A stretch of DNA of 64,000 nt. Source: Fistulifera solaris (Eukaryota). A program made the position numbers and the translations under genes. This document shows positions 6,407-56,853 of the stretch, piece after piece; positions within the stretch are counted from its first letter, which is position 1; each line of letters begins with the position of its first letter. Where the stretch lies: assembly GCA_030295235.1 (NCBI GenBank), contig AP026123.1, forward strand, positions 1-64,000, read 5' to 3'. The notes under the pieces were generated by a model that did no database searches, had not been told where the DNA came from, and saw nothing but the letters and a program-made list of their open reading frames with translations.

Positions 6407-9016
6407 TCAGTCCTCTACGGCGTGAAAGTCACAGTTCCATGTGTCATGTTGCTTCGTATCGATACTTATCTTCAATACTCCGGCGCGTCCATGGCTTTGC
6501 ACTTGCATCGAAAAAGAGTCGCGTGACTCCTCTTCTTCGTCGGAATCCACCGAACGTAGCGATATGGCGTCGTCCATATCTCCATCTATTCCAGTCTGAC
6601 AATTCTTAGAGACCAGTTCATTAGCATGGTATTGAACTCGAGAAATGTGTGAGTTCGGACTCAATCCAGAAAGCAGTAGCGTCCGCCCACGCGCCAAACG
6701 TTTGACGACTGTTAACGGTAGACCCCGAGGGTCACCATTCACGAAAGCCAACAATGGATGCTTCGACAAGCGACATTGTTCCGCTTGCTCTCGAATCCAT
6801 TTTATTTGCTCGCTCGATTCGTCAAAATTTTGGGCTGCTTGCAACACCAAACACTGTACGCCCAACCGCCAAGCTTGAACAAAGGTGGATTGTTTATCGT
6901 GGACGACTATTGAATGGACTCGCTGATTTTGGCCAACAACTTGCGTGCTTTTTTTGGTCAAGGGTGACGCCGAAGTCACCACAACCATATGTGGACGCGA
7001 CTTGTTGATAAAAGCAATTGCCAGCTTCAATAGTTTGGCGTGGCGTTTCAGAGTACATTCATCTTCTGTATCAAAATCATTGGATACAAACCATGGATGG
7101 ATCAACTGGTACACAACAATCTGGGGCAAACTCACTGCTAAGGTCCCGTACGGATCATGAAGGGTCGCTTTGGGCGCTTTGCCCTGGTCGTCGTTCATCT
7201 GAGTTAATCCAACTACGTCGTGCGTGTCTAAACGAATTTTGTTCAGTCGAGCTTCGATAGGATCCGCGAAAAATCGAGCGTAAACACGCGGCTCTCGCAA
7301 CCATTGACACCGATCTAAAACGTGCATTACGGCGCGGCGATCTTCGTTGGGGAGTTTTAAACAATCGTAGCGGGGCGATCCATCACCAGGGGGATGCTCA
7401 TCGAGGAGAGCCACATATCTCCAAGCGTCTTGATGAATGGCTTGGGCCAAAGGTCGAATACACAGATCTCGCAAAGAGGGAAGTACAGTTCCCGTCATGC
7501 CACTCGAAGTAGCTTGACTTTCAGTTAGCTTGGCGAAATAAGGATGCTTCCGAATGATATTGTACGCCCGCCCATCACCTTCGGTCACATCGTGTTCTAC
7601 AACCTTCCCATGGGGAGTGCTTGCAGACGGATAGACAAAACCGGATGCACCAATTCTTTGAGTTGGATCGTGTCGCATCAATTGTTGAATCAAATCCCAT
7701 GCCTCGTCTTCGACAATTCCGACTGGTCGCCGCAAGCAACCTTCTCGCTTAATTTTCAGAAAAGCTAAATATGGCGAAGGACAATTAAAGGGGGTCAAAC
7801 CGGTCTGCATGATATAAAACATACAACCGAGGGCCCATAGATCTGCCGCATGATTTGCACCCCATGCACCTTGAGCTTCAGCCCTTTCAGCTTCTTCCAT
7901 TCCCGATGTCCCGTTGACAGCCTCTGGGCTCATAAAATCCGGCGTTCCGACAAACTCTGGTCCGTTCAAATCGCGTTTCAGACAATCCTTTGCGGTCCCG
8001 AAGTCAATAATGACAACGTGTCGTTTTGCATTGAGCAGCACATTTTCAGTCTTAAGGTCGCGGTGCACAATGCCGTGGCGATGCATATGCTCTAAAGCAT
8101 CAATCATTTGAAACATCCATTGACGGCAACACGAAAACTTGTGACAACCAACCATGCATTTGTTTTGGTTTTCGTCGTGCTTCCATTGACATTGATTCCA
8201 CAAATCGTAAGGGTACAACTCCATCAAATAGTAAATAGTATTGTAGTCTTGAAAGGCGTGGTACATTTGTACAATGTACGGATGAGGCGGAAGTCGCTCT
8301 AGAAGAACACGTCGTTCCATTTGAATTTCATTGTAAACATTTGGATGCTGTCGCTTGGCTAGATCGGCAGCTTGTTTCTTTTCAATGCGTTTGAGCGCGA
8401 ATGTTTCCTGCGTCACTTTGTGTTGCACTACTACGATCTCGCTGAAATTACCGTGTCCCAACGTATCATTAATGAATTTGAATTCCTTGATACTAATCGG
8501 ACGCGAAACTGTTTTGATGGATGTTTCTGGCGCAGTCTGTTCCGTTTGTTGTTGTCGCTGTTGCAACTGGCTTTGCAACTCCTTCCATGCTTTTTCTTGC
8601 TCGAGTTCGATTGCGGTTGTAGCTGATAATATTGCTTGTATAATATCCGAGGCTTGGGACCATTTTTGCAAAGCAATGAGTGTTTTCGTCAATCGATATT
8701 TGGCTTTCTTGATGAGAGCCGTATCCGAAAGATTACTAGACGAAGAAGAGGTAGTCGACAAGTCGACAGCAGTCTGTGCATCTTCTTGCGATCGCTCATA
8801 TTCTTCTTGCTGAAAATACACAGCCGATCGATTGCATAGCAACAAGATTCGTAGCTTGCAATCAGTTTCATCTGTCGATAAAGCATTCAAACCAGCTGTA
8901 TACAAACTCAACGCCGCATCGTAGTTGCCTTGTTTGAATTCGTGATTTCCTCGCAACCGCAGATCGTCGGCTTCAGCTTTTGCAGAGGAGTAGTCGCTTG
9001 TTTCTTCGATTGTCAT
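6407..9016 (-). CDS. TPR + AGC/PDK1-like Ser/Thr kinase + degenerate calcineurin-like phosphoesterase domain
   Basis: TPRs (LRLRGNHEFKQGNYDAALSLY, LLCNRSAVY). Kinase motifs GHGNFSEI, ALK, HRDLKTEN, DFG, FVGTPDFMSPE, DLWALGC. The C-terminus resembles a CPPED1-type fold. Confidence 0.85.
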   Translation of the reverse strand: MTIEETSDYSSAKAEADDLRLRGNHEFKQGNYDAALSLYTAGLNALSTDETDCKLRILLLCNRSAVYFQQEEYERSQEDAQTAVDLSTTSSSSSNLSDTALIKKAKYRLTKTLIALQKWSQASDIIQAILSATTAIELEQEKAWKELQSQLQQRQQQTEQTAPETSIKTVSRPISIKEFKFINDTLGHGNFSEIVVVQHKVTQETFALKRIEKKQAADLAKRQHPNVYNEIQMERRVLLERLPPHPYIVQMYHAFQDYNTIYYLMELYPYDLWNQCQWKHDENQNKCMVGCHKFSCCRQWMFQMIDALEHMHRHGIVHRDLKTENVLLNAKRHVVIIDFGTAKDCLKRDLNGPEFVGTPDFMSPEAVNGTSGMEEAERAEAQGAWGANHAADLWALGCMFYIMQTGLTPFNCPSPYLAFLKIKREGCLRRPVGIVEDEAWDLIQQLMRHDPTQRIGASGFVYPSASTPHGKVVEHDVTEGDGRAYNIIRKHPYFAKLTESQATSSGMTGTVLPSLRDLCIRPLAQAIHQDAWRYVALLDEHPPGDGSPRYDCLKLPNEDRRAVMHVLDRCQWLREPRVYARFFADPIEARLNKIRLDTHDVVGLTQMNDDQGKAPKATLHDPYGTLAVSLPQIVVYQLIHPWFVSNDFDTEDECTLKRHAKLLKLAIAFINKSRPHMVVVTSASPLTKKSTQVVGQNQRVHSIVVHDKQSTFVQAWRLGVQCLVLQAAQNFDESSEQIKWIREQAEQCRLSKHPLLAFVNGDPRGLPLTVVKRLARGRTLLLSGLSPNSHISRVQYHANELVSKNCQTGIDGDMDDAISLRSVDSDEEEESRDSFSMQVQSHGRAGVLKISIDTKQHDTWNCDFHAVED

Positions 9017-21225: not shown

Positions 21226-21979
21226 GACGCCGCTTTGCAAAGTTGTTCCGTCGATGCGAGACCACCTCATCGAATCGAGACAAGGAACGGCAATTGTTGC
21301 GTCATCAAGCGACGACCCGGTAGCACCATGAAAGACCACATGCTCATAGAAAGCACCGAGCGCAGCAAACCTTGAATAAAACTCTCTTAAAAACGAGCGC
21401 GACCGAAGGCCCTCCCATAGTCGAACACTACCCATATCGAGTTTGCGCCATAAAGCAAATTTTCGGCGACTTTTCTCAGAAGTCTTCATCAGAATTAATG
21501 AGCGCGAGATAAGACTAGGCTGCTGTACAGTTATCATGACAGATCAGCCTTCAGTCGACACATTTACCGATATTATGACAATAGTCCATCTCGGTACATC
21601 CAAGCGATTCATTCGACAAGCTCGCCTGCGACGAGAACCTTGTGAAAATTTCTCAACACAGATGGCATTCGGAAAGTCTCGCGAGTCGACAGCTTATACT
21701 TTGGATCACAAACTCTGCTTCGGGCGTATAGCAAACACGAGCAAGATTACATCAAAATCGAGGCTTGCAAGTGACAATAAGCGGTATTACAAGTATTATT
21801 GCGTCGAGCACCAACAACTGGGCGACGGGCGTTGAACAGTTTTTTGTCGACATCTAGAAACGAACAGGAGACTGTTCAATTGAATAATTTATAAGGAAAA
21901 GAAATTGACGAAATAATGAAATGAAATGAAACGAATCGAATTGAATGCCACATAATGAAAAATAATGAAAGCGCGAGAT

Positions 21980-22347
21980 TGTTGAATAACCAGTCACGCA
22001 CGTGTCTACAATAAACGGAAAGACATGTGCACTACATATTACATGATACTGAAAACGAGAAGCGAACAGCAATCTACCAAATCCCGAATCCTCGTTATTC
22101 AAAGAACTAACAGCTGCCGAAGGAACCTAAACTATTACTGACAAAGAACAATGCCAGCAGCTTCTGCATATTCTACATGAATCAAATGAGAACAATGAAG
22201 AGACAAACAAGAATTCAAATCAATAGGATAATTTCATTTACTAGCTCATAATTTTAACAAGCAATCCGTTTGCAGCAATCCGTTTGCACCAAGTTAATTT
22301 TGTCAAGCCCAATCCATAGACGGCTCCGGCACCTGTGGATTTCAAGA
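21980..22347 (+). repeat. 5' LTR
   Basis: TGTTGAAT...ATTTCAAGA, identical by eye to 27802-28169. Contains a tandem 14-bp duplication AGCAATCCGTTTGC. Confidence 0.95.
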
Positions 22348-22363
22348 CGCTTCCTCTGCGCCA
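22348..22363 (+). promoter_or_regulatory. Putative primer-binding site complementary to the D-arm of initiator tRNA-Met
   Basis: CGCTTCCTCTGCGCCA; its reverse complement TGGCGCAGAGGAAGCG matches the conserved eukaryotic tRNAi-Met segment TGGCGCAGNGGAAGCG. Confidence 0.75.
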
Positions 22364-22412
22364 AGTGACCATAAAGCTCCGCACTTTATAACAACTACTT
22401 CGTTCCGACGAA

Positions 22413-23663
22413 ATGGCTGACGCTAACGCCGAACAACGCCAACCAAAACCTCGCTGCTCCCGTAGCAGTAGCCTTTGCTCTAAGCCCCGGCTTGAGCACC
22501 CACCATGTCATCGACTTCTCTACTCGCGAAGGATCTCGCCTCTACGAAATGGTGACCAAGCAGATTGGAGATGAACGATTCGACTGCGATCCCGGTCGCA
22601 TGCGCTCTCCTTCATCGAAGGACTTAGCATCCGTGCTAGCAACTTTGGTTGGGGGCCGATCTTCAACATCCCCCGACGATATCGAAGCCATCGAGCCTGT
22701 CCAGAACACCACCAACCTCCTCTCCAACTACGGAGACATTACTTTGGAGCACATTCAAGCTCACGCGCTACATACATCAGTACCCAGTCCCGTGCAGCTT
22801 AAGACTCCTACATGGCAGCCAACTGCCTCATTTCCTCTCTAAGCCCAGCCGCCATCGATCGCATCACGATCTGGCGGGACCAGTACACCTTTGATGGTAT
22901 CCCCAGCGGGCCTTGCCTGTTCAAAGTCATCATCCGTGAGACTTACATTGACACAAATGCAACGGTCACGCACATTCGCACGCAGCTCTCCAGTTTGGAC
23001 CAGTACTTACCTAAGATTCAGCACAACATCACCAAGATGAACCAGCAAGTTAAACAGCTATTGGAAGGCTTGGCAGCGCGAGGAGAAACCACAAACAATC
23101 TTCTTGCGAATCTCTTTAAGGGTTACAAGGCAGCCTCCGATCGCACCTTTGTCAACTACATCCTGAAGAAAGAAGAAGATTACCACGAAGGTCTTCCCGA
23201 TGACACCGGATCACCTCATGAACCTAGCAGATAACAAGTACAAGACCTTGGTACAACTTTCTCTATGGAACACGGCCGGAAGAAGAAAAGATTCTCGCAT
23301 TGGAGGCAAAACTCCAAAAGTTGGAAAGCAAAAAGAAGACCGAAAACAAGCCAAAGCATCAAGCCAAAAGCAAACCCCAGCGCAACAGAAACACTCCCAA
23401 GCCAGACTGGATGTCGGTGCCTCCAAAGGACGACGAACCCAAGCAGAAAACAGTTGAGGGAAGCGAGTACTTCTGGTGCGAAAAGCATAGCTCATGGGGC
23501 AAACACAAGACGGTTGATTGTCGCCAAGCCAACATCCGCAGACCGGGAGTCTCCAAACCCGAAGGCGAAGAAAGAGCTATTCGTCAAAGCGCTAGCTGCA
23601 CTCCTCAATGACAGCGACAGCGATGAGGACGACAACGAAGATGAGTATTCGGACGCGAAGTGA
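22413..23663 (+). pseudogene. gag: Gag (frameshifted)
   Basis: FALSPG..VIDFSTREG, PSGPCLFKVII, LLANLFKGY and a C-H-H-C knuckle FWCEKHSSWGKHKTVDC; acidic tail. Confidence 0.8.
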
Positions 23664-24059: not shown

Positions 24060-27000
24060 ATGTGTTAATGATGACAGCGATGTGTTACAGTGCAAACGCG
24101 GTCCCACAAGTACTTACCAAGACTTTTGATACCGATTCAGTTCCAGTTGGTGTCGACAATAGATGCTCAGCGTGCATCTCCCATGTCGCGAACGGACTTT
24201 ATTGGAAAACTACAGGAGACCAACTTGATTATCAAAGGCTTTGGCGGTAACCGCACCAGCAATGTGATGAAAGGCACTCTGAAATGGTCATGGGAAAATG
24301 ATGAGGGCAAGATGACATCATTCACGATTCCAAACTCATACTACGTACCAGACGGCAAAGTTCGACTTCTATCACCGCAACATTGGGCAAAATACACCGG
24401 AAACAAACTCTCTGGATGTGATACCACGAGCAAACATGCGATTCTGTATTGGGGCAGCAACAAGAAAACAATTCCGATTGATCCACGCTCAAACGCGTTG
24501 CAACGTTTACTCCGCCCCTGGCTTCCGCGAATTTCAAACCTTCTGCGCTTCAAGCATCGATTCCTGACGATGAAGACGACAATCCGCTTTGTTTCGATGC
24601 AAACACAGTCGACACAACACCTTCAGAGGGAGCGAGCGCAGATTCAGAGGGAGCTGAACCATTTCGCAGCCGCACAGTTGACTTCGAGTTCGAGGGCAAT
24701 CAACAACAACACAAACCGGTCATACAGGAAAGTGACACAACATCAAGTCAAACAGTTCCAGCAGCCAAATTGCTCACTTACCATCGTCTTTATGGTCATG
24801 CGCCAATGGAGAAGCTTCAGGAATTGGCGAAGCAAGGAGTTATTCCATACCGACTTGCAACGTGTCCGACACCGGTGTGCACCGCCCTGTTTTTACGGAA
24901 AAGCAACAAAGCGTCAGTGGCGAACGAAACCAGCTAAACAAAGCAAAACCCTTCACAAGCCTACTCACCCCGGCGAAGTTGTTGCTGTGGATCAAATGGT
25001 ATCACCCACGCCCTGGCCTCATTGCGCAGCTCACAGGAATCTTGACGACAAAACGCTATTTGTACGCCACCGTCTTCGCCGACCTTTATTCCAGCTTGAG
25101 TTATGTTCACCTGCAAAAGACACAAAGTGCGAGTGAGACCTTGGAAGCAAAACACGCTTTTGAACAATACGCTCGAAATTGTGGAGTCGAAAAGATCAAA
25201 CACTATCATGCCGACAATGGAATTTTCAATTCGAACACTTGGGTCAACGATTGCGTAACAAACGGTCAGGGACTTTCCTTTGCAGGAGTTGGAGCACATC
25301 ATCAAAATGGCAAAGCTGAACGCCGCATAGGACAATTGCAAGAACTCACTCGAGCGATGCTGATCGATGCACAACACAAGTGGCCGCAAGCCATCACAAC
25401 TCACCTGTGGCCTTATGCTTTGCGCATGGCAAACGATTCCATCAACCACATGCCAAACATGAAGCACCCTGAGCTCGTACTCCTTATCAACTCTTCAGCC
25501 TACACGGATATTCATTCGAATCCAATTCATTGGAAACCATTCGGTTGCCCAGTATTTGTTCTTGACGCCAGCTTCAAAGAGGAAAAAGTCGGATATTTCA
25601 CAAATGGCGTCTGCGCTCAGCACATCTCGGAATTTATTTGGGACGTTCTCCAGTACACAGCCGTTCTGTCGCCCTGGTACTGAACCCAGACACAAGACTC
25701 GTCAGTCCCCAGTTTCACGTCAAATTTGATTCGAAATTCCAAACTGTTCCGGACCTTGCGAAAACATGTTTGTGGCAACTCAAAGCCGGTTTTATTGCCG
25801 CTCCAAGCGCAAATCCTCAGCAATCCACGCCTACATTGTCGGATACACCTACTGCTCCACCCGCCGACCTCTCTCTGTTACCGATGCCGCTGCCGACCGC
25901 GCACCACCTGATGACAATGTTCCGTCCACCGATCGTCAACCTGAACCACTTTCCTCTCCATCGCCACCACAATCTCAGAGGGAGAGACGCAGCACTCGCC
26001 AACGACGTCCCGTTACTCGATTAATAGAGATCATGATCGCGAATGTTCGCTAGTGAAGTCAGTCAATCATCGGCCGACATCAAAGGGGAACTTTTTGCTT
26101 ACGAATCTCTTCAAACCGCCTCAGCAAAACTCAATCCACCGGATCCATTCTATGTTTTCAAAACGAGCGCCGACCCCGATTCAATGTATTTGCATCAAGC
26201 TCGCAAACAACCCGATTGGCCGGAGTTTTCCAAAGGCATGGACGCCCGAAATCGAGGATCAAATGGCAAATGGAAATTTCTCATTGTTTCCAAGGAGTCA
26301 AGTTCCAGAGGGAGCAACGATTCTACCAACAGTATGGCAACTTCGTCGCAAACGAGACACTATGACACGCGAAGTCAAGAAGTGGAAAGCGCGACTGACT
26401 ATTGATGGGTCACGGATGAAATATGGTCGCGACTATGAATTGACCTACTCTCCGGTTGCTAATTGGACTTCAATCCGCTTGTTACTAGCAATGGTGATCA
26501 TACATGGTTGGCATACTGAAGCAACTCGATTATGTTCAGGCATTTCCTCAGAGCCAGCGACAAAGAAATTTATCTGTCCATTCCGAAAGGATATACAATA
26601 CACGGAGCATCCCCCGGACGATTATGTTCTGAAAGTCCACAAGAATGTTTATGGAGCAAAGGATGCAAGTCGAACATGGTTCCTTTATTTGCGAAAGAAA
26701 CTATTTGAGATCGGTTTCAAGCAATCGGAATACGACGAATGTGTGTTTTACTACAAGAGCACGATGTATGTTCTACATACCGGCGACAGTATTCTTGGAG
26801 GTCCTAATGAAAAGGAAATTGAGGAAATTATTGAAAAGATGAAACAGATCAAACTAGACATTACAGTTGAGGGAGATTTATCGGATTTTCTGGGAGTTAA
26901 TATCAACAGGATCGATGAATCAACAATTGAATTGAAACAGCCACATCTCATCGACCGATAATCAAAGACATGAAATTCGACCAGAAGGAAGTTAAAACAA

Positions 27001-27781
27001 AGGATATTCCAATGGCATCATCGAAGCTACTTTTGCAGCATCCCAAATCGCCGCCATTTGACAAAAGTTTTCATTACACTTCAGTCATCGGAAAAATGAA
27101 CTACCTGACGCGAGGATCCAGGCCAGACATCGCCTATGCGGTACATCAATGCGCGCTTTGCATCAAACCCAAGGAAAGAACATGGAGATGCAATGAGATG
27201 GCTTACAAAGTATCTGATAGGGACAAGGGACAAAGGAATGATTCTGCACCCAGACGTCTCTAGAAGCTTGGAAGTTCATGTCGACGCCCGATTTCGCAGG
27301 CAATTGGGATCCAGAGATCGCTTTTGAGGACCTAAACACAGCTCGCTCCAGACACGGATTTTTCATCACCTATGCCGGAGTATTGTTGCATCACAAGAGT
27401 CAACTTCAGACAGAGATTGCATTGAGTTCCATCGAGAGCGAATTCACCGGATTGAGCTACGCACTCAGAGATGCAATTCCTATCATGAACACTTTGAAGG
27501 AGATGCAATCACTCGGATTTGATGTGAAAGAGTGGAGGCCAAAAGTCCATTGCAAAGTATTTGAGGACAACTCGGGAGCTCTGGAAATCGCAAAAGTTCC
27601 GAAGGCTCGACCAAGGACGAAGCATTTGAATGTCAAACTGCACCATTTTCGGTCATACGTTGACAGCGGAGATATAACAATCCACAAAATCGATACTCTT
27701 GAACAAGTTGCGGATATTCTAACGAAACCACTCACATTTGATCTCTTTGCCAAACATCGGAAGGCAATTCTCGGATGGTGA
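24060..27781 (+). pseudogene. pol: Pol polyprotein PR-IN-RT-RNaseH (many frameshifts)
   Basis: PR FDTDSVPVGVDNRCS. IN VAVDQMVSP, HYHADNGIF, GAHHQNGKAER. RT KWKARL..DG, KNVYG.K, LHTGDSIL. RH VHVDADFAG, VFEDNSGA, RTKHL, QVADILTKPL, ending GW-stop. Start is approximate. Confidence 0.9.
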
Positions 27782-27792
27782 GATCGCAGTTC

Positions 27793-27801
27793 GAGAGGGA
27801 G
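27793..27801 (+). promoter_or_regulatory. Polypurine tract
   Basis: GAGAGGGAG directly before the 3' LTR TG. Confidence 0.85.
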
Positions 27802-28169
27802 TGTTGAATAACCAGTCACGCACGTGTCTACAATAAACGGAAAGACATGTGCACTACATATTACATGATACTGAAAACGAGAAGCGAACAGCAATCTACC
27901 AAATCCCGAATCCTCGTTATTCAAAGAACTAACAGCTGCCGAAGGAACCTAAACTATTACTGACAAAGAACAATGCCAGCAGCTTCTGCATATTCTACAT
28001 GAATCAAATGAGAACAATGAAGAGACAAACAAGAATTCAAATCAATAGGATAATTTCATTTACTAGCTCATAATTTTAACAAGCAATCCGTTTGCAGCAA
28101 TCCGTTTGCACCAAGTTAATTTTGTCAAGCCCAATCCATAGACGGCTCCGGCACCTGTGGATTTCAAGA
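27802..28169 (+). repeat. 3' LTR
   Basis: 368 bp, identical by eye to the 5' LTR. Confidence 0.95.
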
Positions 28170-28626
28170 CGAGATGCGTAATTACTTGTACTTGTACAGT
28201 ATAGGCTCGATATCTCGAAGAATCAATCTCGATGCTCGATCATTTCATTCATGACTCAAATGCAGTCGTGGTTAAAGCCGGAAAACACTGTGGCCTGTAG
28301 ACTAGTGAAAAATAAATGAATTTTCCAATCAATTAATTTGCACAATAAAAAAAAATTCGTGCCAATATTAACAACGCAAAAAACATTATATTCGAGCACA
28401 TGGTGGCATAACTATTTTCATAGCATGATGATAGCCATTGGTGATCATTGGCACAAGAGAGCTTTCTCAGCACAGTTTGCCCTATGACTGGATTTCAATC
28501 ATGAGTGCCTCCTTTTTTGCAGTTTTTGCAGCAGCGCTTTTGTTTTTACTCCGTATACCAGGTATTATCTACTGTGCTGTTGATGGTCATCATTCATCAT
28601 ATTCATAGCCTCTCGCACAGCGCACA

Positions 28627-30238: not shown

Positions 30239-30840
30239 TTCCAGACGTTTAGGAATTGTTGGTTTGGTTCTACGAGAGTCTATGGTCCTTCCAGAAATTC
30301 TGGAATAGAAGCTTTTGGTCAATCAGAAATTCTGTGGAGTTTCCAGGAATTCAGGAATAGGTGTTTTGGGTCAAACAGAGATTCTGTAGTAGTACAAGAA
30401 ATTCTGGAATCGCTGATTTGGTCAAACAAAGAATCTTTCTAGAAAATCTGGAATTCGTGTTTGGGTCAAACATAGTTTCTTTGGTCGTTCCAGAGACTCT
30501 GGAAAGTGTGTTTTGTATGAAACAGAGATTCTGTGGTCGTTCCAGAAATTCTGGAAACGGTGATGCGGGGCAAACAGAGATTCTGTGTAGCTTTCTGAAA
30601 TTCAGGAAGCATCGGTGATTTGTGATTTGTGATTTGGGTCAAACAAAATTTCTTTGGTCGTTCGAGATTCTGGAAACTGTGTTTTGTACGAAACAGAGAT
30701 TCTGTAGTTGTTCCAGAATTTCTGGAATGTTAAGACTATACTTCAGATCAAACAGAGATTCGGTGGTCGTTCCAGAAATTCTGGAATCGAAGCTTTGGGT
30801 CAAACAACGCGATGTTCTGTCGTCGTTTCAGAAAACGACG
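30239..30840. repeat. Degenerate minisatellite, about 11-12 units of ~52 bp with palindromic cores
   Basis: Recurring TTCCAGAAATTCTGGAA ... GGTCAAACAGAGATTCTGTGGTCG, with cores at about 30289, 30341, 30393, 30437, 30488, 30540, 30592, 30661, 30711 and 30770. Confidence 0.9.
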
Positions 30841-54060: not shown

Positions 54061-54373
54061 CTCGTTAGACTTTGATGTAAGTAAGTATTTCCGATTAATG
54101 TTCAGAAAGCGAAAAGCGGTAGAGGAGGGTTCTCCGAGCTTCCTAGTGTCATCAAATTGTCCTTGAAGACTTCGTAGCAAATAAATGAGGCGTTCCGCTG
54201 TCTCGTGCCCAAGACTCCTAATTTGCAAGCTGTCTCCTGGTTAATTGTATAAAAGGATCGATTAGCAACTAAAAATGAACCAAGCGAGGAGCGAAGTGAA
54301 ATATTATCATCATCGATGACGGCAAGCATTAAACGGAAATACTGGTAAGAGCCGCAGCCAATCAAAACTGTTC

Positions 54374-56853
54374 AATATCCGGGTTTCCCCTCAGTCGATA
54401 AATTTCCTTACGGAGGTCTACGTGGTTTCTACGCGTGAAATCTACAAGCAATGCGTTCATGATTTCTTCGGTCGCTTTGCATGAAAATAGCGCTAATTTG
54501 TTATTCGATATTGCTCAATGACATTGTTGGAGAGGTCAAACATGATGCAGCTGCGAAAGGGACCCGAAAATGGATGCATTCCAAACTTTTCGATTTCCGG
54601 GTTCCCCCTCAGTCGATAAATTTCCTTACGGAGGTCTACGTGGTTTCTACGCGTGAAATCTACAAGCGTTGCATTCATGACTTCTTCGGTCGCTTTGCAT
54701 GAAAATAGCGCTAATTTGTTATTCGATATTGCTCAATGACATTGTGGGAGCGGCCGAGAATCGTGCAGCTGCGAAAGGGACCCGAAAATGGATGCATTCC
54801 AAACTTTTCGATTTCCGGGTTCCCCCTCAGTCGATAAATTTCCTTACGGAGGTCTACGTGGTTTCTACGCGTGAAATCTACAAGCGTTGCATTCATGATT
54901 TCTTCGGTCGCTTTGTATGAAAATAGCGCTAATTTGTTATTCGATATTGCTCAATGACATTGTTGGAGCGGCAGAAAATCGTGCAGCTGCGAAAGGGACC
55001 CGAAAATGGATGCATTCCAAACTTTTCGATTTCCGGGTTCCCCCCTCAGTCGATAAATTTCCTTACGGAGGTCTACGTGGTTTCTACGCGTGAAATCTAC
55101 AAGCGTTGCATTCATGACTTCTTCGGTCGCTTTGCATGAAAATAGCGCTAATTTGTTATTCGATATTGCTCAATGACATTGTTGGAGAGGTCAAACATGA
55201 TGCATTGTGGGAGCGGCCGAGAATCGTGCAGCTGCGAAAGGGACCCGAAAATGGATACATTCCAAACTTTTCGATTTCCGGGTTCCCCCTCAGTCGATAA
55301 ATTTCCTTACGGAGGTCTACGTGGTTTCTACGCGTGAAATCTACAAGCAATGCGTTCATGATTTCTTCGGTCGCTTTGCATGAAAATAGCGCTAATTTGT
55401 TATTCGATATTGCTCAATGACATTGTTGGAGAGGTCAAACATGATGCATTGTGGGAGCGGCCGAGAATCGTGCAGCTGCGAAAGGGACCCGAAAATGGAT
55501 GCATTCCAAACTTTTCGATTTCCGGGTTCCCCCTCAGTCGATAAATTTCCTTACGGAGGTCTACGTGGTTTCTACGCGTGAAATCTACAAGCAATGCGTT
55601 CATGATTTCTTCGGTCGCTTTGCATGAAAATAGCGCTAATTTGTTATTCGATATTGCTCAATGACATTGTTGGAGAGGTCAAACATGATGCATTGTGGGA
55701 GCGGCCGAGAATCGTGCAGCTGCGAAAGGGACCCGAAAATGGATGCATTCCAAACTTTTCGATTTCCGGGTTCCCCCTCAGTCGATAAATTTCCTTACGG
55801 AGGTCTACGTGGTTTCTACGCGTGAAATCTACAAGCAATGCGTTCATGATTTCTTCGGTCGCTTTGCATGAAAATAGCGCTAATTTGTTATTCGATATTG
55901 CTCAATGACATTGTTGGAGAGGTCAAACATGATGCATTGTGGGAGCGGCCGAGAATCGTGCAGCTGCGAAAGGGACCCGAAAATGGATGCCTTCCAAACT
56001 TTTCGATTTCCGGGTTCCCCCTCAGTCGATAAATTTCCTTACGGAGGTCTACGTGGTTTCTACGCGTGAAATCTACAAGCAATGCGTTCATGATTTCTTC
56101 GGTCGCTTTGCATGAAAATAGCGCTAATTTGTTATTCGATATTGCTCAATGACATTGTTGGAGAGGTCAAACATGATGCAGCTGCGAAAGGGACCCGAAA
56201 ATGGATGCATTCCAAACTTTTCGATTTCCGGGTTCCCCCTCAGTCGATAAATTTCCTTACGGAGGTCTACGTGGTTTCTACGCGTGAAATCTACAAGCGT
56301 TGCATTCATGACTTCTTCGGTTGCTTTGCACGAAAATAGCGCTAATTTGTTATTCGATATTGCTCAATGACATTGTTGGAGAGGTCAAACATGATGCAGC
56401 TGCGAAAGGGACCCGAAAATGGATGCATTCCAAACTTTTCGATTTCCGGGTTCCCCCTCAGTCGATAAATTTCCTTACGGAGGTCTACGTGGTTTCTACG
56501 CGTGAAATCTACAAGCAATGCGTTCATGATTTCTTCGGTCGCTTTGCATGAAAATAGCGCTAATTTGTTATTCGATATTGCTCAATGACATTGTTGGAGA
56601 GGTCAAACATGATGCAGCTGCGAAAGGGACCCGAAAATGGATGCCTTCCAAACTTTTCGATTTCCGGGTTCCCCCTCAGTCGATAAATTTCCTTACGGAG
56701 GTCTACGTGGTTTCTACGCCTGGACATTACAAGGAATGCATTTCATGCTCTTTTCGACCGTTTTGCACAAGAACAGCGCTCATTTGTTATTCGTTGCTGT
56801 GCAATAACATTTCGTTGTTTTGCAATAAAGCTATTTGAGAGGTCAAACATGAC
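54374..56853. repeat. Tandem satellite array, about 11 units of 218 or 244 bp, with a degenerate right end
   Basis: The anchor A(T/C)GAAAATAG recurs at 54481, 54699, 54917, 55136, 55380, 55624, 55868, 56112, 56330 and 56548. A diverged partial unit spans 56720-56853. Confidence 0.97.

Follow-up and report, generated by a model that had tools for sequence, protein, structure and literature searches.

Immediately downstream of the 5′ LTR of a Ty1/copia retrotransposon from a diatom lies a short sequence that probably serves as a minus-strand primer-binding site, pairing with the 5′ portion of the cytoplasmic initiator tRNA-Met and primed by a 3′-truncated form of that tRNA. The element is located in the 64-kb stretch of DNA analysed here (the window), and the reading is inferred from the sequences of few lineages. 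These comprise the element itself, contigs assembled from short-read runs, and one more distant element, L131, recovered from a prokaryote genome contig. Contigs from four runs were compared over 21950–22950 at 80% likeness. X1 is the likely source run, X2 is a wetland metagenome and X9 is a differently coded organism; the fourth, X7, gave coverage outside the site.

One LTR pair is present in the window, with the Copia element between its two copies, and the features of the element are as follows.

21975–21979, no strand: 5′ target-site duplication GAGAT, read directly and repeated after the 3′ LTR
21980–22348, + strand: 5′ LTR of 369 bp, beginning TGTTGAAT and ending ATTTCAAGAC, 100% identical to the 3′ LTR, its end set by the duplication
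22349–22370, + strand: proposed primer-binding site, of which 22349–22363 complements nt 8–23 of an initiator-type tRNA-Met
22347–22364, + strand: core of the complementarity kept in diverged copies (tRNA nt 7–25), found in one X2 contig and as the L131 block ACGCTTCCTCTGCGC (22347–22361)
22413–23663, + strand: gag region, split over several frames in the window copy, from reading frames
24075–25683, + strand: protease and integrase region in overlapping frames, from reading frames; integrase core weakly detected
25945–26961, + strand: copia-type reverse transcriptase (Pfam RVT_2, E = 1.1e-22, 81.3 bits against a cut-off of 31.6)
27242–27781, + strand: RNase H region and end of pol, with the stop codon at 27779–27781; aligns with the C-terminal part of homologues
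27793–27801, + strand: polypurine tract GAGAGGGAG, directly 5′ of the 3′ LTR and just past the pol stop
27802–28170, + strand: 3′ LTR, identical to the 5′ LTR
28171–28175, no strand: 3′ target-site duplication GAGAT, matching the 5′ copy

The direct LTRs, the 5-bp duplication and the polypurine tract before the 3′ LTR are those of an LTR retrotransposon, and the RVT_2-type reverse transcriptase (RT), which scores above its Pfam cut-off, is that of the Ty1/copia superfamily, for which a 5-bp duplication is described as usual. Identity between the LTR copies is unbroken over 21980–22349 versus 27802–28171, and the end of the LTR is placed at 22348 because the GAGAT duplication of 5 bp delimits it; the termini consist of a TG start and an end in AC rather than CA. 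The open reading frame at 24736–25683 matches the Pfam integrase core (rve) only at E = 0.18, under the cut-off. A total of 192 polyproteins are homologous to the RT of the element, the best being 59% identical and one being named from Fistulifera solaris, and the homologous polyproteins carry PF13976 together with PF07727. A flanking gene at 6407–9013 on the − strand encodes a product 99% identical to a Fistulifera solaris protein, which identifies the host as this diatom or one very closely related to it. The element is a young, recently inserted Ty1/copia retrotransposon in a diatom.

The window copy is frameshifted, with its coding region distributed over several frames. Only after one base at 22429 is removed does the ATG at 22413 come into frame with the long gag reading frame, and this base is absent from all X1, X2 and X7 contigs aligned there. 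Indels of 1–2 nt at 22429, 22605 and 22768 distinguish the window from all X1 and X2 contigs, and an indel at 22670 distinguishes it from all X2 contigs, suggesting that the frame breaks are either private mutations of this copy or assembly errors. Given these indel differences together with the identical LTRs, the frame breaks are suspect. The family to which the element belongs is present in high copy number in the short-read contigs. Over 22324–22391, in X1 and X2 alike, the summed contig depth is about 3-fold lower in the internal region than at the LTR end, which is consistent with a family that has many solo LTRs or 3′ LTR junctions, contig depth being a rough guide. Elsewhere in the window, a tandem array at 54362–56728 holds about 10 copies of a 218–244-nt unit that are 67–98% identical to the reference copy, and a short array at 30279–30638 has a period of about 52 nt, with 5 registered copies at 61–75% identity.

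The proposed site is contained in the 23-mer CGCTTCCTCTGCGCCAAGTGACC at 22348–22370 on the + strand, which occurs nowhere else in the window even when 3 mismatches are allowed (0.00 expected from 100 shuffles). The first base past the LTR opens the sequence GCTTCCTCTGCGCCAAGTGACC. An initial annotation of this DNA, made from its letters, had remarked that no TGG follows the 5′ LTR, and indeed the triplet that marks a canonical site for the 3′ end of a tRNA is absent from the first 20 nt after 22348, the only TGGT further on being about 200 nt inside gag. What is found in its place is the complement of the tRNA motif TGGCGCAGNGGAAGCG, which has a single match in the 64-kb window, with 0 mismatches, at 22348–22363 on the − strand; when up to 2 mismatches are allowed, 0.14 matches are expected window-wide and no second near-match was found. 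Pairing starts one base earlier, with A22347 opposite U25 of some tRNA-Met genes, and the last two bases of the LTR, AC, still complement tRNA nt 24–25. The site is not palindromic, and ARAGORN and Rfam detected no tRNA within the window. The position and strand that had been given for the site thus hold, as it adjoins the 5′ LTR and is the complement of the D-arm of a tRNA, not of its 3′ end.

A scan of IMG/VR with the 16-mer returned at least 132 exact matches in at least 118 stretches. Among the 132 matches listed, 106 fall inside tRNA-Met(CAT) genes called by ARAGORN, where they occupy nt 8–24, and this, together with the exactness of the 16-mer match, upholds the D-arm complementarity to initiator tRNA-Met that had been proposed. 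A further 4 of the 132 listed are in calls labelled tRNA-Ile, and 22 are outside any call, some of the latter being tRNA-Met genes interrupted by an intron. Among the matches listed, the called 5′ end of the tRNA lies 7 or 8 nt before the start of the motif, and in 86 of the 132 listed a CATAA anticodon loop is accompanied by a GATCGAAAC-type T-loop, as judged by the author's own pattern. A T-loop of this type and an A at position 1 are marks of eukaryotic initiator tRNAs. When the reverse complement of the window sequence is aligned with four initiator-type genes, it matches nt 8–25 and diverges where the anticodon stem begins, and the bases upstream of 22347 have no match to the anticodon stem of any aligned initiator tRNA. 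The complementarity is limited to nt 7–25, which is not the half-tRNA site of the hemivirus type. All four aligned genes start with A, and the window copy would put G opposite tRNA position 1.

The same motif is present in other tRNA genes of the databases searched. In the metagenome contig L121, a tRNA-Val(GAC) gene at 2000–2074, one of eight tRNA genes grouped in a phage-like cluster, agrees with the complement of the site at 22 of 23 bases, so initiator tRNA is not the only carrier of the D-arm motif. L044, a giant-virus-like IMG/VR contig with a tRNA cluster, encodes at 716–841 an initiator-type tRNA-Met with an intron of about 53 nt after about nt 30, which is a non-canonical intron position. 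Six other giant-virus-like contigs with tRNA clusters (L059, L066, L071, L101, L105 and L118) have the same conserved sequence as L044 past nt 26–30. All seven were considered as instances of an LTR end followed by the site and were rejected, L044 being an intron-bearing tRNA-Met gene. No RT relative was found in the three records of this group that were searched, a set to which L044 and L118 do not belong, and RVT_2 is absent from L003, L084, L096, L037 and L050.

Relatives of the element were sought in IMG/VR with the RT protein and with a 27-sequence alignment, and none was found there by either query. A pattern that joins the LTR end to the site matched 7 loci in IMG/VR, none with a tRNA gene. 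A scan of prokaryote genome contigs yielded 4 contaminant loci, and L131 is the only one of them to include an element's 5′ end. A comparison with 401 genomes of the same phylum gave a match solely in the genome of L131 itself, where the 14-mer is found only at the L131 site. L131 (6418 bp) comes from a cyanobacterial MAG, where it is contamination; it is an intact eukaryotic Copia element, circularly permuted and with a single LTR, arranged as follows.

1720–3150 of L131: gag
3163–6417 of L131: pol
To 1166 of L131: end of the RT/RNase H region, followed by the polypurine tract GAGTGAGAGGGAG and then by an LTR starting TGTGATG

The gag_pre-integrs and SH3_retrovirus domains are encoded upstream of RVT_2 in one open reading frame of L131, and its RT is 39–40% identical to that of the window element. 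At the LTR/leader junction of L131, the sequence ACGCTTCCTCTGCGC forms a 15-nt perfect block between flanks that can hardly be aligned. This block corresponds to tRNA nt 10–25, and the C that precedes it extends the pairing to nt 26. The complementarity runs 3 nt into the LTR, of which L131 has a single copy, so its end is not delimited. As L131 is unpaired at nt 1–9, the feature that the two elements have in common is the D-arm itself.

Closer copies were seen in the short-read contigs, where no variant reaches a share of 5% within 22348–22369 in X1, X2 or X9. One X9 contig spans the LTR, the site and the leader, and its sole difference from the window in 22333–22429 is a C>T change at 22370, whereas the 152 nt that follow contain 10 differences. 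In one X2 contig, the LTR end is retained along with the site as far as 22364, after which the sequence is unlike that of the window, as in a diverged subfamily. The initial annotation had linked its proposal to conservation of the site across copies, and such conservation is seen, both for the core in L131 and at 22348–22369 in the three runs, over three or four lineages.

That annotation had also suggested that the extra 7 nt could pair with the host acceptor strand, and here it went too far. The bases at 22364–22370 are possibly complementary to acceptor-strand nt 1–7, and this extension is not a conserved feature. L131 has no pairing to nt 1–9 or to any acceptor strand, and the diverged X2 contig, which leaves the window sequence after 22364, keeps the complement of nt 7–25 and not that of nt 1–6. 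The putative acceptor match is specific to the subfamily of the window element, and in the X9 copy the T at 22370 would give A at tRNA position 1. The 21-mer GTCACTTGGCGCAGNGGAAGC was found at 10 loci in JGI metagenomes, 9 of them non-tRNA and 1 a phage-like tRNA-Val(GAC); none of the 10 is a eukaryotic initiator tRNA with a GTCACT acceptor strand, and no copy of the element was found there. In IMG/VR, the same 21-mer has 1 locus, inside a coding region and not in an initiator tRNA gene. These negative results on the acceptor strand have little power because the element itself is also absent from the JGI metagenomes and IMG/VR. Overall, the earlier interpretation is partly supported, appearing right in kind and over-extended on acceptor pairing.

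In the proposed mechanism, the initiator tRNA would anneal to the site through a core of nt 10–25, with nt 7–9 also paired in the window family and nt 1–6 possibly so. A 3′-OH would be supplied at about nt 23–25, in the 3′ strand of the D-stem, and it would be needed near there because the site must abut U5 and the pairing ends at nt 25–26. Since the pairing stops before the anticodon stem, the primer would be a 3′-truncated initiator tRNA of about 22–24 nt, or roughly a quarter of the tRNA. The truncation could take place beforehand, yielding a 5′ tRNA fragment, or could be made by an agent that cuts the tRNA after annealing, at the border of the duplex; 5′ tRNA fragments of about 22 nt are described in other systems. 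This would be the half-tRNA principle of copia and Ty5, with the cut shifted from the anticodon stem-loop to the D-arm. A third mode of priming by a fragment ending at the base of the D-stem had been put forward in the initial annotation; the register it implied, which differs from nt 39/40, stands, and the free 23–25-nt fragment that it favoured is one of two conceivable routes, cleavage of the annealed tRNA being the other.

The 3′ end of the primer can be placed only to within about 2 nt, since the tRNA is also complementary to the final two bases of the LTR (3 in L131). Complementarity that runs into the LTR is unusual, and one possible reason for the overlap would be that the minus strand retains a few ribonucleotides of the primer, which are then copied into the LTR end. 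Plus-strand strong-stop synthesis would recopy the site from the primer in each cycle, which would explain the identical 14–15-nt core despite an RT identity of about 40%. Recopying could stop at a modified G9, presumably present on this initiator tRNA, and would then produce exactly the 10–24 core. The modification m1G9 is described in a review as frequent in eukaryotic tRNAs.

A bolder form of this reading, which has slightly less than an even chance of being right, is that a lineage of diatom Copia elements employs a minus-strand primer of a fourth kind, a “quarter-tRNA” consisting of about nt 1–24 of initiator tRNA-Met. The strong-stop copy would then end either at the modified G9, giving the invariant 14–15-nt core seen in L131, or at the 5′ end of the tRNA, giving the 22–23-nt match seen in the window, and the A at tRNA position 1 that corresponds to the X9 copy fits copying to the tRNA 5′ end. 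If this were true, host output of 22–25-nt 5′ initiator-tRNA fragments would gate retrotransposition, and tRNA-fragment biology would be tied to transposon activity in diatoms.

Other explanations for the site must be weighed against priming by a truncated initiator tRNA. The primer could be another host RNA with the same D-arm, such as an elongator tRNA beginning GGUCACU, a tRNA-like transcript or a tRNA-derived repeat. The G that the window has opposite position 1, where the four aligned initiator-type genes begin with A, is in keeping with such an RNA, as are the phage tRNA-Val(GAC) of L121 and the 4 calls of tRNA-Ile among the 132 matches listed, but 106 of the same 132 are tRNA-Met(CAT), most with the initiator-type T-loop, the T at 22370 in X9 restores A at position 1, and L131, without nt 1–9 pairing, has the D-arm alone in common with the window element, all of which makes a different RNA unlikely. 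Somewhat less probable again is that the D-arm complement only recruits or packages the whole initiator tRNA, with initiation from a different 3′-OH elsewhere. There is a precedent in the accessory boxes of yeast Ty1 RNA, which pair with the D and T arms of the initiator tRNA. Against this reading, a site of the TGG type is missing at the LTR border and the only further TGGT is the one within gag; moreover, generation of the LTR requires a primer site directly next to U5, which is where the block lies both here and in L131.

The two remaining explanations are very improbable. Self-priming as in Tf1, in which the 5′ end of the transcript folds back on the site and is cut, is predicted in published work for some plant Copia and Gypsy lineages, and the initial annotation had named it as an outcome that would overturn its proposal. 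Priming of the Tf1 type involves about 11 nt of the transcript 5′ end complementary to the primer site, whereas the longest complement of 22345–22380 in the whole LTR is 6 nt, and at up to 2 mismatches the window contains no other near-match to the 16-mer. With an LTR that holds no complement to the site, self-priming has next to nothing to recommend it and was rejected. Chance resemblance without function would be equally surprising; it has nothing in its favour beyond the small size of the site, and it would have to account for an exact 16-mer match at the single position and strand where function requires it and for the same block at the same junction in an element with only about 40% RT identity.

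A primer site that pairs with the D-arm would imply a different cut and a much shorter primer, and would widen the known use of tRNAs by retroelements. The new part would be the location of the cut in the D-arm, as the priming of Copia elements by truncated tRNAs is already known. There is also a consequence for annotation, since tools that seek complements of tRNA 3′ ends or of anticodon halves would report “no PBS” in diatom elements of this kind. The prediction that follows is a 22–25-nt 5′ fragment of initiator tRNA joined to strong-stop cDNA, and through such a primer the tRNA fragments induced by stress could be connected with those diatom Copia elements that stress activates.

Searches of the open literature returned no paper on a primer site in the D-arm or D-stem or on a site complementary to a tRNA 5′ end. 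The main text of Maumus et al. (2009), which deals with the CoDi elements, makes no mention of “tRNA” or “primer binding”, and the D-arm motif is absent from one supplementary file of a small-RNA paper on P. tricornutum. The window element resembles the CoDi elements in being a Copia element in a diatom, with its closest named homologue from Fistulifera solaris, a likeness that does not imply placement in a CoDi clade. In the plant survey by Neumann et al. (2019), as in textbook accounts, three primer types only are recognized: a tRNA may serve whole or as a half produced by a cut in the anticodon stem, or the element may supply a self-primer.

Elements with standard 3′-end priming, described for Ty1, Tnt1, most plant Copia elements and metazoan GalEa, share with the window element the same tRNA, the same architecture and the 5-bp duplication; the window element differs from them in having no TGGTA-type site and in relying on the other end of the tRNA. 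At this position of the element, non-canonical solutions are also reported for Tf1, which is self-primed, and for fungal GalEa elements, which have a conserved hairpin in place of the primer site. Unlike these, the window site is not palindromic, and the 5′ end of the element offers no complement to it. Internal regions of tRNAs are known as primers from several lineages: the accounts consulted describe internal regions of tRNA-Arg and initiator tRNA for Candida elements, anticodon-loop sites of several tRNAs for fungal Copia and Helenus elements, and half-tRNA priming in plants for Osser, Bryco and some Gymco-II lineages, Osser being an element of Volvox.

The closest parallel is with the hemiviruses (Ty5 of yeast, Osser, and 1731 and copia of Drosophila), which are described as starting from about nt 39/40, in the anticodon stem-loop, and among which copia is primed by the 5′ half of the initiator tRNA. 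The window element belongs to the same Ty1/copia superfamily and apparently uses the same tRNA, the initiator Met. In both, as far as published descriptions of the hemiviruses go, an internal part of the tRNA is complemented, so that a 3′-truncated tRNA must provide the 3′-OH. The hemivirus site is reported to pair with the anticodon stem-loop, with its start at about nt 39/40, whereas the pairing here covers only nt 7/10–25, and a primer ending near nt 24 would thus place the diatom element in a register different from that of the known half-tRNA elements.
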